DNA of 64,000 nucleotides. It comes from Escherichia coli. GTDB lineage: Bacteria > Pseudomonadota > Gammaproteobacteria > Enterobacterales > Enterobacteriaceae. Position 1 is the first letter of the stretch; each line of letters opens with the position of its first letter. The notes under the pieces are model-generated. The model saw nothing but the letters and a program-made list of their open reading frames with translations. It had not been told where the DNA came from and ran no database searches. Position numbers and translations under genes: made by a program. Below, piece by piece: positions 22,572 through 30,760 of the stretch. Where the stretch lies: NCBI RefSeq assembly GCF_003334305.1, contig NZ_QOWS01000016.1, one strand, 5' to 3'.

Positions 22572-24224
22572 TTACGCGCTCAACAGTTGCTTCATGTCTT
22601 CTTCAACAGTGGTGATAGAACGCAGGCCAAATTTCTCGTTCAGCACCGCCAGCAGGTCTGGTGTCAGGAAACCAGGTGCAGTCGGGCCGGTGACGATATT
22701 TTTCACGCCCAGAGAAAGCAGCGTCAGCAGAATGACGATCGCTTTCTGTTCAAACCAGGAGAGCACCAGCGACAGCGGCAGATCGTTGACACCGCAGCCC
22801 AGTTTCTCTGCCAGAGTGACAGCCAGAATAATCGCTGAGTAAGCATCGTTACATTGACCTGCATCTACCAGACGCGGCAGACCTTCGATATCGCCAAACT
22901 CAAGTTTGTTAAAGCGATATTTACCACAGGCCAGGGTCAGGATCAGGCAGTCATCCGGCACGCTGGTGGCGAAATCGGTGAAGTAGTGGCGCTCGCCGCG
23001 TGCGCCGTCACAGCCACCAAGCAGGAAGATATGACGCAGTTTTTCACGGCTCACCAGATCAATCAGCGTATCCGCTGCGCCAAGCAGCGTCTGGCGGCCA
23101 AAGCCCACGGTGATCAGGTGCGGAATTTCGCTGTACGGGAAGCCCGCCATTTGTTGCGCCTGGGCGATGACCGCAGAAAAATCTTCGCCATCCAGATGAC
23201 GCACACCCGGCCAGCCAACGATGCTGCGGGTCCAGATACGATCGTCATAAGCGCCTACGGTTGGGTCGATGATGCAGTTCGAGGTCATCACGATGGGGCC
23301 AGGGAAACGAGCGAACTCTACTTGCTGATTCTGCCAGCCGCTGCCGTAGTTACCGACCAGATGCTTGAATTTACGCAGCTCCGGGTAGCCATGCGCAGGC
23401 AGCATTTCGCCGTGGGTGTAGACATTAACGCCCGTGCCTTCGGTCTGTTCCAGCAGGTTGTAGAGATCTTTGAGATCGTGACCGGAAATCAGAATGCATT
23501 TACCCGCCGTCGCTTTGACGTTGACCTGGGTTGGCGTCGGGTGACCGTATTTACCGGTTTCGCCTGCATCCAGAATGCTCATCACTTTGAAGTTCATCTG
23601 GCCGATTTCCATTGAACACTCAAGAAGCGCGTTCATATCGGCAGGCCAGGTCCCCAGCCACGCCATGATTTTATGGTACTGGGCATAAATATCGTTGTCG
23701 TATTGACCGAGAACATGCGCGTGTTCCATATAGGCCGCCGCACCTTTCAGGCCATACAGGCACAGCAGACGCAGGCCGAGAATGTTTTCGCCAATCGCCG
23801 CTTTATCTTTGTTAGGGGTAAATTCTGCTGCCTGACGTTGCAGCTCGCCGAGATCGTCGCTCACCAGTTGCAGGTCAGCCATCGGGTTATCGACGCGCGC
23901 GTTGGCATCTACAGCCAGGCATTGCGCTTTCAGCGCCTCGCGCAGGGCAATCGCTTCACGAGCGTAGCCGACAATACGCGGAGAATCGAAGTTAACGTTG
24001 GTCAGGGTTGAGAAAAAGGCACGTGGCGCGAAGCTGTCAACATCGTGGTTGATGATGCCGTATTCACGCGCTTTTACCGCCCAGGCAGAAAGCCCTTGCA
24101 GCGCCGCGATGAGTAAATCCTGAAGGTCAGAAGTTTCCGCCGTTTTACCACACATCCCCTGCGCGTATGAGCAGCCGTTTCCTGCCGGAGTACGGATAGT
24201 TTGTTCACATTGCACACAAAACAT
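22572..24224 (-). CDS. hcp: Hybrid-cluster protein Hcp
   Basis: ORF track 22572..24230 trimmed to ATG at 24224 ([27 protein letters not shown]), 550 aa; N-terminal Cys cluster. Confidence 0.9.
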
Positions 24225-24320
24225 GATCACACCTTTTAAAGTTATATTTAATATACATGTTTAAGGTTAAGACGCTTAACGCGGGGATAAAAGGGATTTT
24301 TCATGCAACTTTAAGGGAGA

Positions 24321-24367: not shown

Positions 24368-25267
24368 TTACGCAGAGAAAAAGGCGATGAGGATCGGCAC
24401 TAACAGGCTAAGAATAAAACCGTGAACAATTGCCGCCGGGACCATATCCAGCCCGCCAGTACGTTGAAGAACGGGCAGGGTGAAATCCATTGATGTGGCA
24501 CCGCATAAGCCCAGTGCAGTAGAGCGGCTGCGGCGAATCAGCCCAGGGATCAACATAATAGCAATCAGTTCACGGGCCAGATCATTAAAAAACGCCGCGC
24601 TCCCGATTACCGGACCAAAAGATTCGGTCAATAAAATACCGGAAAGAGAATACCAGCCGAAACCGGAGGCCATTGCCAGCGCGGTATTGATGGGGAGATC
24701 AAGAATAAAGGCGTTAATTAAACCACCAATTAATGAACTGACAACCACCACCACGGCGACAATCATTCCCCGGCGATTAAGGACAATCTGCTTTAAGGTC
24801 ATGCCATTATTGCGCAACTGAATACCAACGAGGAAAAGTAGCAAAATTAACGTGTATTCACTGGCTTCGGTCGCGTGTTGTAAGAAAGCCAGTCCACTCA
24901 GACCAATGGCAAAACCAATCACTACTACGCCGCACAGTTTTAGCGACTCCAGCGCCATCGCAATACGCGACGGGAGTTTTTCTTGCTGATGGTGGTTGCG
25001 CCACGGCAGGCCTCGCTCCAGCCACATCAGGGCGGCAATATTACACAGTAAAATAACGGTAATACTGACGGCAGAATAATGCAGAATCGCCAACAGGTTA
25101 CTGGCGAGGTTATCGAGAAACGCCAGACTGATACCCATAAAAAAGAGAATAAGGTAAACCATCCAGCTTAATAGCTGATTAATAACTTTTAACGCAGCTT
25201 GTTGGCGAAGCGGAATGAGGTAACCCACAATCAGGGGAACCAGAATGATTAACAGCCCAGAAAACAT
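24368..25267 (-). CDS. ybjE: Lysine exporter LysO (YbjE)
   Basis: ORF track 24368..25315 trimmed to ATG at 25267 (MFSGLLIILVPLIVGYLIPL...), 299 aa multi-TM protein. Confidence 0.8.
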   Translation of the reverse strand: MFSGLLIILVPLIVGYLIPLRQQAALKVINQLLSWMVYLILFFMGISLAFLDNLASNLLAILHYSAVSITVILLCNIAALMWLERGLPWRNHHQQEKLPSRIAMALESLKLCGVVVIGFAIGLSGLAFLQHATEASEYTLILLLFLVGIQLRNNGMTLKQIVLNRRGMIVAVVVVVSSLIGGLINAFILDLPINTALAMASGFGWYSLSGILLTESFGPVIGSAAFFNDLARELIAIMLIPGLIRRSRSTALGLCGATSMDFTLPVLQRTGGLDMVPAAIVHGFILSLLVPILIAFFSA

Positions 25268-25721
25268 GAAAACCCAGTCCTTGCAAAGATGAAGTCGAAA
25301 TGCGCGATGACACACTACTGAAAGCGGAAGGACGAGTAAAGTTGCAATTAAAAGGAAATGTTATGCATAAGGAGCAGTAGAGTATTCGTTTTCATTTAAA
25401 GATATTCTTGCGCTTTAATTACAAACTGCACCGATGTTGGTGGCGTCAAAATCGCCGAGGCGTTCCCTGAAGGCCGGGGCAGCCCACATGGATGTGGGCT
25501 GAGGGCGCGTTTTACAGGGATGTTACCTCGCGCCCGACCCGGTAGCCGTAAGGTATAAGTCGAGGGCACCGCGCAGCGGCGATTTTGTTCGCCAGAGCCC
25601 GGGGGTGCATGGGGCGGCGGCGATTGGCCGCCCCCTGCGCGCTCTTTGCGCCAGTGGCAATATGTGGCTTAGCTCATGAAAGGAGCGCAACAAGATGATG
25701 AATCAACATATAACAACATCT

Positions 25722-26882: not shown

Positions 26883-28541
26883 ATGATTCTTGAGCGCGTT
26901 GAAATTGTGGGTTTTCGCGGTATCAACCGTTTGTCGTTGATGCTGGAACAAAACAACGTCCTGATTGGGGAGAACGCGTGGGGTAAATCCAGCTTGCTGG
27001 ACGCCTTAACCCTGCTGCTATCGCCAGAATCAGATCTCTACCATTTTGAGCGCGACGATTTCTGGTTCCCGCCGGGAGATATCAACGGGCGAGAACATCA
27101 TCTGCATATTATTTTGACCTTCCGCGAATCGCTGCCAGGCCGACATCGGGTTCGCCGTTATCGGCCGCTGGAAGCGTGCTGGACGCCATGCACCGATGGC
27201 TATCACCGTATTTTTTATCGTCTGGAAGGGGAGAGTGCGGAAGACGGCAGCGTGATGACACTGCGCAGTTTTCTCGATAAAGACGGACATCCGATTGATG
27301 TCGAGGATATTAACGATCAGGCACGCCATCTGGTGCGTTTAATGCCGGTGCTGCGCTTGCGTGATGCCCGTTTTATGCGCCGTATTCGTAACGGCACGGT
27401 GCCAAATGTTCCCAATGTGGAAGTCACCGCGCGCCAGCTCGATTTCCTCGCCCGTGAGTTGTCCTCACATCCGCAAAATCTCTCTGATGGACAGATTCGT
27501 CAGGGACTTTCCGCAATGGTGCAGTTGCTTGAGCATTATTTCTCTGAGCAGGGGGCTGGACAGGCGCGATATCGTTTAATGCGGCGGCGGGCCAGCAATG
27601 AGCAACGAAGCTGGCGCTATCTGGACATCATCAACCGGATGATTGACCGACCTGGAGGGCGCTCGTATCGGGTTATTTTGCTCGGCCTGTTTGCTACTTT
27701 ATTGCAGGCAAAAGGCACATTGAGACTGGATAAAGACGCGCGTCCGTTATTGCTAATTGAAGATCCAGAAACCCGCCTGCATCCGATTATGCTTTCCGTT
27801 GCCTGGCATCTGTTGAATCTTTTGCCTTTACAGCGTATTGCTACCACCAACTCTGGCGAGCTGCTTTCGTTAACTCCAGTGGAACATGTTTGCCGCCTGG
27901 TGCGTGAATCTTCTCGTGTTGCCGCCTGGCGTCTGGGGCCAAGTGGCTTGAGCACCGAAGACAGCCGCCGCATCTCTTTTCACATTCGTTTTAATCGTCC
28001 GTCATCGCTGTTTGCTCGCTGCTGGTTGCTGGTGGAAGGGGAAACGGAAACCTGGGTTATCAATGAACTGGCGCGTCAGTGCGGACATCATTTTGATGCC
28101 GAAGGGATCAAGGTCATTGAGTTTGCCCAGTCCGGGCTAAAGCCACTGGTTAAATTTGCCCGCCGAATGGGGATTGAATGGCATGTACTGGTCGATGGCG
28201 ATGAAGCAGGGAAGAAATATGCCGCTACGGTACGCAGCCTGTTGAATAACGATCGGGAAGCCGAACGAGAACATTTAACGGCGTTACCGGCGCTGGATAT
28301 GGAACATTTTATGTATCGCCAGGGATTTTCCGATGTGTTCCACCGCGTGGCGCAAATCCCGGAAAATGTACCGATGAATCTGCGCAAAATTATCTCGAAA
28401 GCGATCCATCGCTCTTCCAAACCCGATCTTGCCATTGAAGTGGCAATGGAGGCCGGACGTCGTGGTGTGGACTCCGTACCGACGCTGCTGAAAAAAATGT
28501 TCTCACGCGTGCTGTGGCTGGCGCGCGGTCGCGCGGATTAA
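26883..28541 (+). CDS. ybjD: OLD-family protein YbjD: N-terminal ABC-type ATPase plus C-terminal Toprim domain, predicted nuclease of unknown role
   Basis: 552-aa ORF with GGAGGGG RBS; Walker A GENAWGKSS (~nt 26967-26990); acidic Walker-B-like patch LLLIEDPE; Toprim glutamate in LLVEGETE (~nt 28035-28049) and DxD in VDGDEAG (~nt 28194-28205). Confidence 0.85.
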   Translation: MILERVEIVGFRGINRLSLMLEQNNVLIGENAWGKSSLLDALTLLLSPESDLYHFERDDFWFPPGDINGREHHLHIILTFRESLPGRHRVRRYRPLEACWTPCTDGYHRIFYRLEGESAEDGSVMTLRSFLDKDGHPIDVEDINDQARHLVRLMPVLRLRDARFMRRIRNGTVPNVPNVEVTARQLDFLARELSSHPQNLSDGQIRQGLSAMVQLLEHYFSEQGAGQARYRLMRRRASNEQRSWRYLDIINRMIDRPGGRSYRVILLGLFATLLQAKGTLRLDKDARPLLLIEDPETRLHPIMLSVAWHLLNLLPLQRIATTNSGELLSLTPVEHVCRLVRESSRVAAWRLGPSGLSTEDSRRISFHIRFNRPSSLFARCWLLVEGETETWVINELARQCGHHFDAEGIKVIEFAQSGLKPLVKFARRMGIEWHVLVDGDEAGKKYAATVRSLLNNDREAEREHLTALPALDMEHFMYRQGFSDVFHRVAQIPENVPMNLRKIISKAIHRSSKPDLAIEVAMEAGRRGVDSVPTLLKKMFSRVLWLARGRAD

Positions 28542-29530
28542 CCGCGAAACATCGTGGCCATTTGTGGCTGAATAGCGTCGAGCATCTCATAGCGCCGACG
28601 GTATTCAGCCCGTTTTTTACTGGCGATTTCGGCAATCTCTTTTCGTGCTATCTGTGCTGGAAGGCGGTAATGGCGTTCAGCATCACATACGCCGCCAACC
28701 GATTCCCAGAAAGCGTTGTAATCGGCATGGATCTTGCCTTCTTTATCACGATAACGCAGGCTGCGGTAAATATGCGTTTCATTGCTGACGGCAATAATCT
28801 GCTCTACCTGCAAACGTTGGGCAAACAGACAGGCCGCTTCCATCACGAGGCGTTTGGGAAATAGCCCGTGGCAGGCTTTCGTCGCATTCTGGATTTCCTG
28901 ATGTGGAATTTCCCATTTTGCGCCTTGCAGTCCGCCAATAAACATCGTTCTTTTCCCCTGATATTCACACAGGGTAAACGTGATCTCTGCCAGAGGAATA
29001 CCTTCGCTGTTGCGAAACAGGATTGTGCTGTCACCTTCTTTATCCATTGAGATCATCATGGTCAGCTCAAGCGTGAACTGCTCGCCGTTTTTGCCTTCCA
29101 GTTTAGCCAGTTGCAGCCCGGGGGTATTCAAATATAAGCTGAATTCTTCCGCCGACATACATCCGCGGAGTAACGCATAATGGTAACGTAACGCCTCCAG
29201 CAATTGCTTACGGCTAAGATTCGCCGCAAGGTAAGGGCGATGCAGACGCACAGGCAGTCGCGGTTGGCGCGTTAACAACACATTGAGATTAGGCCAGTGG
29301 GAAAGTTCGTTCATCCACTCAACGCTTAAACGCGGCATAATCAACGAGCGCAGCAAAAATTTCTGGCGAAAACTACGGCGATGCCAGAATTTACCCGGCC
29401 GACACTGTCCACGTGCCAGACTAAGAAAAAGTGACAGGCTGCTGAGAGATTCAGATGGCGTAAAGGTCCGTTCAGTTAGCTGCGACATATTCATGAAATC
29501 AATGGTTATACATGACGTCGATTTCACCAT
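28538..29530 (-). CDS. ybjX: VirK/DUF535-family protein YbjX
   Basis: 330-aa ORF; stop overlaps ybjD stop by ~3 nt (convergent). Alternative starts at ~29494/29488 (MNMSQLTER...) cannot be excluded; no clear RBS at any candidate. Confidence 0.7.
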   Translation of the reverse strand: MVKSTSCITIDFMNMSQLTERTFTPSESLSSLSLFLSLARGQCRPGKFWHRRSFRQKFLLRSLIMPRLSVEWMNELSHWPNLNVLLTRQPRLPVRLHRPYLAANLSRKQLLEALRYHYALLRGCMSAEEFSLYLNTPGLQLAKLEGKNGEQFTLELTMMISMDKEGDSTILFRNSEGIPLAEITFTLCEYQGKRTMFIGGLQGAKWEIPHQEIQNATKACHGLFPKRLVMEAACLFAQRLQVEQIIAVSNETHIYRSLRYRDKEGKIHADYNAFWESVGGVCDAERHYRLPAQIARKEIAEIASKKRAEYRRRYEMLDAIQPQMATMFRG

Positions 29531-29585
29531 TGCGTATCTTAACCAAACATCAATAGTGTGATTACTAACGTAAATTTTAGGGTTT

Positions 29586-29602
29586 TGTTGATATTTCGTT
29601 GA
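29586..29602 (+). promoter_or_regulatory. PhoP-box-like direct repeat in the ybjX-macA divergent region
   Basis: TGTTGA-tattt-CGTTGA hexamer direct repeat with 5-nt spacer, ~43 bp upstream of the macA ATG. Confidence 0.3.
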
Positions 29603-29644
29603 AGTTAATGACCCGGATTGGCATATGGAGTATTCAGAATATTT

Positions 29645-30760
29645 ATGAAAAAGCGGAAAACCGTGAAGAAGCGTTACGTTATTGCGCTGGTGATAGTCAT
29701 CGCCGGACTGATTACGTTATGGAGAATTCTTAACGCACCCGTGCCGACTTATCAGACACTGATTGTGCGCCCCGGTGATTTACAGCAAAGCGTGCTGGCG
29801 ACCGGAAAGCTGGACGCGCTGCGTAAGGTTGACGTGGGCGCGCAGGTCAGCGGTCAGTTGAAAACTCTGTCGGTGGCGATTGGCGATAAAGTAAAAAAAG
29901 ACCAGCTTTTAGGGGTTATTGATCCTGAACAGGCTGAAAACCAGATTAAGGAGGTCGAAGCAACGCTGATGGAGCTACGTGCGCAGCGGCAGCAGGCGGA
30001 AGCGGAGCTGAAACTGGCGCGGGTGACGTATTCCCGTCAGCAACGTCTGGCACAAACGCAGGCGGTTTCACAGCAGGATCTCGACACCGCCGCGACGGAG
30101 ATGGCTGTGAAACAGGCGCAAATTGGCACCATTGACGCGCAAATCAAGCGCAATCAGGCCTCTCTCGATACGGCTAAAACCAATCTCGATTACACTCGCA
30201 TCGTTGCCCCGATGGCCGGGGAAGTCACGCAAATCACCACTCTGCAAGGCCAGACGGTGATTGCCGCACAACAAGCACCGAACATTCTGACGCTGGCAGA
30301 TATGAGCACCATGCTGGTAAAAGCGCAGGTTTCTGAAGCGGATGTAATCCACCTGAAGCCGGGGCAAAAAGCCTGGTTTACGGTACTTGGCGATCCACTG
30401 ACGCGCTACGAGGGGCAAATCAAGGATGTACTACCGACGCCGGAAAAGGTTAACGACGCTATTTTCTATTACGCCCGTTTTGAAGTCCCCAACCCCAATG
30501 GTTTGCTGCGGCTGGATATGACTGCGCAAGTGCATATTCAGCTCACCGATGTGAAAAATGTGCTGACGATCCCTCTGTCGGCGTTAGGCGATCCGGTTGG
30601 CGATAATCGTTATAAAGTCAAATTGTTGCGTAATGGTGAAACACGCGAGCGTGAAGTGACGATTGGCGCACGTAACGATACCGATGTTGAGATTGTCAAA
30701 GGGCTTGAAGCGGGCGATGAAGTGGTGATTGGTGAGGCCAAACCAGGAGCTGCACAATGA
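29645..30760 (+). CDS. macA: Macrolide efflux membrane fusion protein MacA
   Basis: ORF track 29618..30760 trimmed to ATG at 29645 ([18 protein letters not shown]...), 371 aa; coiled-coil periplasmic adaptor. Confidence 0.9.

Follow-up and report, generated by a model that had tools for sequence, protein, structure and literature searches.

The direct repeat TGTTGA-N5-CGTTGA at positions 29586-29602 of the window (the whole 64-kb stretch of Escherichia coli DNA that was analysed) is a PhoP box, the type of site recognised by the Mg2+-sensing regulator PhoP. Combining footprint-derived motif scoring, comparative analysis of the ybjX/macA locus and the published record, we conclude with high confidence that this repeat constitutes the distal of two PhoP boxes in the low-Mg2+-inducible promoter of ybjX, a promoter of the 'architecture II' class (Zwir 2012). 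The distal box, its partner box, the regulator and the effect on ybjX are all already in the literature, making this an ordinary known element of small discovery value. The site is nonetheless useful for calibration: consensus counting would dismiss it on account of its three mismatches, and a footprint-derived matrix puts it at the top of 64 kb.

A preliminary description had noted the repeat between ybjX and the divergent pump gene macA and had suggested that one box might serve both promoters. The box is indeed known at ybjX, but the spacer contains two boxes, and the proximal one (29539-29555) had been missed. The one-box proposal is therefore incomplete, with 29586-29602 constituting the distal, auxiliary member of the pair and the essential proximal box overlapping the -35 region. 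The features of the locus, with the evidence that defines them, are as follows.

29486..29494, minus strand: used ybjX start codons Met13 (29494..29492) and Met15 (29488..29486); mutagenesis and Western blot (PMC12562796)
29513, minus strand: ybjX transcription start, uncertain by about 1 nt; Shigella primer extension and Reg-Seq start 919103 (reverse strand)
29521..29529, minus strand: ybjX extended -10, TGgTGAAAT (hexamer TGAAAT at 29526..29521); mutagenesis and conservation
29555..29539, minus strand: proximal PhoP box, TATTGA-TGTTT-GGTTAA; Shigella mutagenesis, matrix rank 3, Reg-Seq site and essential Salmonella counterpart
29572, plus strand: macA transcription start, an A located 73 bp before the ATG; mapped in E. 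coli DH10b by primer extension from a plasmid (PMC12562796)
29583..29608, no strand assigned: H-NS/StpA repressor stretch, Reg-Seq -95..-70 of ybjX, overlapping the distal PhoP box
29586..29602, plus strand: distal PhoP box of the ybjX promoter, TGTTGA-TATTT-CGTTGA; sequence, matrix rank 1, conserved hexamers, Harari listing and Reg-Seq
29645..30760, plus strand: macA coding sequence, 371 aa from the ATG at 29645

Motif strength and promoter layout

The textbook PhoP box is a direct repeat of two (T/G)GTTTA hexamers 5 nt apart, with an 11-bp period. Read on the plus strand, the distal box consists of TGTTGA (29586-29591), TATTT (29592-29596) and CGTTGA (29597-29602), and has three mismatches to TGTTTA-N5-TGTTTA, with G in place of T at position 5 of both hexamers and an initial C in the second. 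This initial C is the reason why the strict pattern KGTTKA-N5-KGTTKA, which has no match in the 64-kb window, misses the site. The pattern GTTKA-N6-GTTKA yields two sites in the window against 0.43 expected, and allowing up to three mismatches to TGTTTA-N5-TGTTTA yields 64 against 46 expected, a count too unspecific to be informative. Sites for CpxR, PmrA and OmpR (OmpR/PhoB family) were also considered; they do not match the GTTGA hexamers and 11-bp period, the CpxR consensus being GTAAA-N5-GTAAA.

A weight matrix was derived from the 23 DNase-footprinted Salmonella 'activation' PhoP boxes in Table 1 of Zwir 2012 (PMC3335776), leaving both ybjX boxes out of the training set so that the test is independent of the ybjX locus. 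On this matrix the 19-mer TTGTTGATATTTCGTTGAA (29585-29603) scores 18.0-18.2 bits, compared to a training median of 16.3, and ranks first among the 127,964 positions on both strands of the window, bearing out the resemblance to a PhoP box noted in the preliminary description. The analytic probability of such a score is 1.5e-7 per position, corresponding to 0.02 expected occurrences per window and about 1.4 per 4.6-Mb genome; within the 150-bp intergenic region the chance is about 1e-3, even using the region's own AT-rich composition. GTTGA half-sites, CGTTGA included, are found in footprinted Salmonella boxes, such as those of ompX (CGGTTGAGGGTTCGTTGAA) and pagD (Zwir 2012, PMC3335776). The third-ranked match in the window, CTATTGATGTTTGGTTAAG (29556..29538, minus strand), lies in the same spacer and corresponds to the proximal box.

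The proximal box is in direct orientation relative to ybjX, spanning -26..-42 of its promoter, overlapping the -35 region and leaving 12 nt to the -10. Centred near -81, the distal box spans -73..-89 of the ybjX start in reverse orientation, and is hence direct relative to macA. The two boxes are arranged back-to-back with a 30-nt gap (47 bp centre to centre), and it is this combination of a direct proximal box 12 nt from the -10 with a reverse box 30 nt upstream that defines architecture II.

A 601-base stretch around the distal box is 100% identical to many complete E. coli genomes, with ybjX and macA annotated under the match, and the K-12 RefSeq record (NC_000913) carries no annotated regulatory features in the ybjX/macA spacer. 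The distal box ends 42 nt before the macA ATG at 29645, in agreement with the approximately 43 bp originally given. The 114-bp divergent region described at the same time holds for the K-12-style ybjX ORF, starting at 29530 on the minus strand, but is incorrect for the real untranslated spacer, because primer extension and mutagenesis indicate that the ybjX ATG it relies on is not used. Counting from the used starts (29494 or 29488) the untranslated spacer is 150 bp. Its composition is 67% A+T.

A good extended -10 is present at the ybjX promoter, a usable -35 is not. The K-12-style ATG (29530..29528, 330 aa) overlaps the extended -10 TGgTGAAAT, and the mapped transcription start at 29513 falls downstream of it. 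The K-12 ybjX start codon is thus mis-annotated, being actually part of the extended -10; the 318-aa form appears in the PGAP annotation of other strains, and NC_000913 retains the 330-aa form. A scan of 29350-29800 for sigma-70 promoters and terminators returned none, as expected, since activator-dependent promoters with poor -35 elements escape such scans.

Experimental support for this layout comes from a 2025 study (PMC12562796) in Shigella flexneri, which is equivalent to E. coli at the ybjX/macA locus. Primer extension placed the ybjX start 18 bp inside the annotated ORF, and changing the -10 from TGAAAT to CGAATT abolished reporter expression. Induction of ybjX at 0.1 mM Mg2+ was found to depend on phoP and phoQ, and the study reported one PhoP box, TATTGA-5 bp-GGTTAA, overlapping the -35, in which an AT to GC mutation at -39/-40 lowers low-Mg expression. 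The box reported there is the proximal box at 29555..29539, distinct from the repeat at 29586-29602; the study reported and tested the proximal box only.

Conservation of the box pair

A scan for MacA in one genome per species returned 80 loci from Escherichia, Citrobacter, Salmonella, Enterobacter, Leclercia, Kosakonia, Kluyvera, Atlantibacter, Siccibacter, Phytobacter, Cedecea, Pluralibacter and others. With the window included, ybjX is divergent from macA at 69 loci, and 12 loci lack an adjacent ybjX. A locus was considered to carry the pair if its best back-to-back pair of matrix matches exceeded 20 bits combined. The pair is present in 65 of the 69 ybjX-adjacent loci, representing 15 genus labels, and the median combined score of all 69 is 30.7 bits. 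The gap between box cores is 29-31 nt in the 65 loci and exactly 30 nt in 56 of them. Among the loci with macA but no adjacent ybjX the pair was found in 0/12 (median 2.7 bits, maximum 15.7), an absence that may simply reflect the loss of the spacer together with ybjX. The null distribution for the pair score was drawn from the same window, and its maximum, 33.4, equals the combined score of the real boxes; a random draw almost certainly landed on the real site itself, so that this value is no independent false positive.

Alignment of 56 distinct sequences, drawn from 15 genus labels, anchored on the distal box and weighted by genus, reveals three conserved blocks: the ybjX extended -10 (ATTTcA.CA on the plus strand), which is the most conserved, the proximal half-sites and the distal half-sites. 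Mean information is 1.58 bits in the distal hexamers and 1.43 bits in the proximal hexamers, whereas each 5-nt spacer carries 0.29 bits, the stretch separating the boxes 0.38 bits and the sequence downstream towards macA 0.29 bits. Hexamers conserved at an 11-bp period around a freely varying spacer are characteristic of a response-regulator dimer rather than an AT-tract. The boxes keep their 30-nt spacing far more strictly than the sequence it contains, which suggests that a particular geometry is required. The distal box stays at a fixed distance from the ybjX promoter, its distance to the macA ATG ranges from 45 to 74 nt among clear cases, and the macA -10 region mapped in Shigella shows no conservation between genera. 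On these comparative data, the distal box belongs to ybjX.

Across 29575-29614, 4,208 of the 5,407 E. coli genomes match the window exactly and about 1,198 show a one-base difference. The three variants sampled all carry a T to G change at 29583, two bases outside the 19-mer, leaving the box itself unchanged; one of them has further changes at 29584 and 29613. The sole difference between K-12 and the window in this region lies at 29640, and the spacer has no indels.

The pair is not obligatory, as illustrated by two Kluyvera loci (L027 and L032) that keep the distal box in the 200 nt upstream of macA, at 17.8 bits and, in the matching position of L032, 14.0 bits, with no recognisable proximal box and a divergent ybjX -10 block (ATTTTAGCA and ATTTTACCA, respectively). 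A third Kluyvera locus (L045) has both boxes. In Citrobacter koseri (L009, about 1361-1500), ybjX has been lost apart from roughly its final 24 codons. Just to the right of the deletion endpoint a distal-box-like sequence, TTGTTTATTTACCGTTAAG, survives; its 19-mer begins 67 nt, and its core 65 nt, upstream of the macA ATG, with neither ybjX nor a proximal box at the locus.

Many non-Escherichia genera present a -10-like hexamer (TAGAAT, TAAAAT or TAAGAT) 2-4 nt after the distal box, where E. coli has GTTAAT. Loci bearing this hexamer include representatives of Enterobacter, Leclercia, Kosakonia and Trabulsiella (e.g. L030, L043, L058 and L031), and the hexamer might be a genus-specific macA promoter element or a flanking preference of the box.

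Published record and proposed mechanism at ybjX

The distal box has been listed before as a PhoP binding site. Fig. S2 of Harari 2010 (PMC2908699) contains the entry 'ybjX: TTGTTGAT---TCGTTGAA E. Coli', identical in sequence to the distal box, and a second entry, 'ybjX: CTATTGAT---TGGTTAAG E. Coli'. In Reg-Seq (Ireland 2020, PMC7567609), the E. coli K-12 ybjX promoter was dissected by massively parallel mutagenesis, and two activator sites assigned to PhoP emerged, one spanning -90..-72 and the other -41..-25 relative to start 919103 on the reverse strand. Fixing the coordinate offset by macA at 919235 in K-12, these sites convert to 29585-29603 and 29538-29554 of the window, matching the two boxes, with agreement exact to the nucleotide for the distal one. 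The assignment of these sites to PhoP was based on motif similarity (TOMTOM E = 0.01), with no knockout, and for -95..-70 the proteins identified by mass spectrometry were H-NS and StpA (PMC7567609). The K-12 element in these two sources is therefore the same element, identical in sequence to that of the window, and macA is not discussed in them. Our literature search returned no footprinting, gel-shift or ChIP experiment that paired E. coli PhoP with the exact distal-box sequence.

Direct evidence of binding is available for Salmonella, where both ybjX boxes were footprinted with DNase I by phosphorylated PhoP (Zwir 2012, PMC3335776). Mutation of the direct box, GTATTGACGATTGGTTAAT, located 12 nt from the -10, abolished GFP expression, and mutation of the reverse box, TTGTTTAGATACGGTTTAC, located 30 nt further upstream, cut expression more than 8-fold (PMC3335776). 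The published Salmonella boxes occupy the same alignment columns as the two boxes of the window, so that the distal box corresponds in position to the reverse box footprinted there. The Salmonella Typhimurium ybjX (somA) promoter thus shares with that of E. coli the gene, the reverse orientation of the upstream box, the 30-nt gap and the 12 nt between proximal box and -10. The footprinting and site-directed mutagenesis of Zwir 2012 were performed on the Salmonella sequence only, and the hexamers differ, being near-consensus in Salmonella (TGTTTA and GGTTTA) versus TGTTGA and CGTTGA in E. coli. Given the G at position 5 and the initial C, the affinity of PhoP for the distal box may be below that for the Salmonella box. 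That E. coli PhoP physically binds this exact GTTGA-type variant is what we infer from the sources above.

In the mechanism that we propose for ybjX, a phosphorylated PhoP dimer on the proximal box (29555..29539) would replace the poor -35 and recruit RNA polymerase to TGgTGAAAT. That the proximal dimer supplies the missing -35 contact has been shown for Salmonella and is supported for Shigella and E. coli. A second PhoP dimer on the distal box, in opposite orientation and 30 nt away, would boost output several-fold, an effect for which the evidence is mutational in Salmonella and, in E. coli, consists of the activator footprint seen by Reg-Seq. Most likely, this distal dimer would aid transcription by making the upstream complex more stable, by driving H-NS/StpA off this AT-rich stretch, or through a combination of the two.

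Counter-silencing of H-NS/StpA would be the likeliest contribution of the distal dimer, by analogy with virK, the Salmonella paralogue of ybjX, which also has architecture II. We favour it because H-NS/StpA map on the same stretch in E. coli and because the virK distal box overcomes H-NS silencing, its mutation strongly lowering in vivo expression. The analogy is partial in layout, since the virK distal box is in direct orientation 26 nt upstream, whereas that of E. coli ybjX is reverse at 30 nt; an anti-H-NS role of the latter is thus inferred by likeness to virK.

The macA side and alternative readings

Both genes flanking the repeat have been linked to PhoPQ, as the preliminary description stated: ybjX in Shigella and macAB in Salmonella. 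The repeat does not lie upstream of the macA promoter: the mapped macA start at 29572 puts the distal box at +15..+31 and the proximal box at -33..-17 of macA. The divergent ybjX and macA starts are 58 bp apart and their -35 regions overlap. Reports of PhoP control of macAB come from Salmonella only, and its direction is disputed. According to papers citing it, Nishino 2006 found a PhoP box ahead of Salmonella macA to be bound by PhoP and macAB to be repressed by it, whereas Honeycutt 2020 found that PhoP promotes macAB transcription and placed the main Salmonella macA start 504 nt upstream of the ATG, inside ybjX. Our search found no E. coli or Shigella data on the response of macA to PhoP; the Shigella study built a macA reporter and reports no PhoP test (PMC12562796). 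A 2021 Chem Rev review mentions PhoPQ regulation of macAB in E. coli, with a supporting reference that we could not trace.

Published sigma-32 signals fall at about 28500-29650, consisting of a peak from genomic SELEX attributed to the spacer between ybjX and macA, and of a ChIP target designated ybjX. Together with the Salmonella start inside ybjX, these signals suggest that macA may have extra upstream promoters reading through the PhoP boxes.

The boxes could serve as an additional operator for macA, with PhoP on both boxes blocking or occluding RNA polymerase, so that low Mg2+ would turn ybjX on and the sigma-70 macA promoter down. We consider this possible, if on balance doubtful. Both boxes overlap the macA promoter or lie just downstream of it, in positions that fit repression rather than activation, the two promoters overlap, and the binding and repression attributed to Nishino 2006 by citing papers would agree with such a role. 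Against it, the pair does not stay with macA irrespective of its neighbour, being absent where ybjX is not adjacent and lying at a variable distance from the macA ATG. The lack of conservation of the macA -10 region, the absence of macA-PhoP data for E. coli or Shigella in the literature searched, and the promotion of macAB from a distant main start in Salmonella (Honeycutt 2020) also weigh against it.

There is a precedent for a regulator shared in this manner. In E. coli, a single PhoP box is reportedly common to the divergent overlapping mgtA and treR promoters, with opposite effects said to have been shown experimentally in work attributed to Yamamoto in 2002. This system resembles ybjX/macA in placing a PhoP site in the short spacer between divergent overlapping promoters, but has one box instead of two. 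The likeness illustrates how a single bound regulator could switch on one of the two genes while hampering its neighbour.

Extending this idea, the distal box might be bifunctional, in that the same PhoP dimer that boosts ybjX, possibly through eviction of H-NS/StpA, would also, with the proximal box, shut the sigma-70 macA promoter, the 30-nt gap reflecting the dimer geometry required. We regard this combined proposal as unlikely; if true, low Mg2+ would flip expression between the divergent ybjX and macA genes.

It is very improbable that the distal box takes the place of a -35 in a macA promoter activated by PhoP, mirroring the function of the proximal box at ybjX. Its direct orientation relative to macA, the symmetrical back-to-back layout of the boxes and the PhoP-supported transcription of macAB in Salmonella would suit such a promoter. 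However, by eye there is no convincing -10 at 12 nt (GGATTG, 29615-29620) or at 21-23 nt (TATGGA, 29624-29629) downstream, the sigma-70 scan of 29350-29800 returned no promoter, and the mapped macA start lies upstream of the box. The variable distance to the macA ATG and the lack of conservation downstream of the box likewise speak against it.

Even less probable is the view that the stretch serves mainly for H-NS/StpA nucleation on AT-rich DNA, with an incidental likeness to a PhoP box. The recovery of both proteins on -95..-70 and the A+T content of the spacer favour it, but conservation is confined to hexamers at 11-bp periodicity around a variable spacer, Reg-Seq scores the same bases as an activator site too, and the Salmonella counterpart is footprinted by PhoP. 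A functionless chance resemblance, suggested by the three mismatches to the textbook consensus and by how common such matches are in the window, is a negligible prospect given the top matrix rank with 0.02 occurrences expected, and is already refuted by conservation in 65/69 loci and by published mutational data.

Three of the next-best matches to the PhoP matrix in the window, at 13-15.7 bits, are clustered at 24233-24251 (plus strand), 24549-24567 (minus strand) and 24718-24736 (minus strand). One lies just upstream of a 552-aa ORF (22572..24230, minus strand) and the remaining two fall within the ORF at 24368..25315 (minus strand); this cluster may merely mirror AT-rich sequence.
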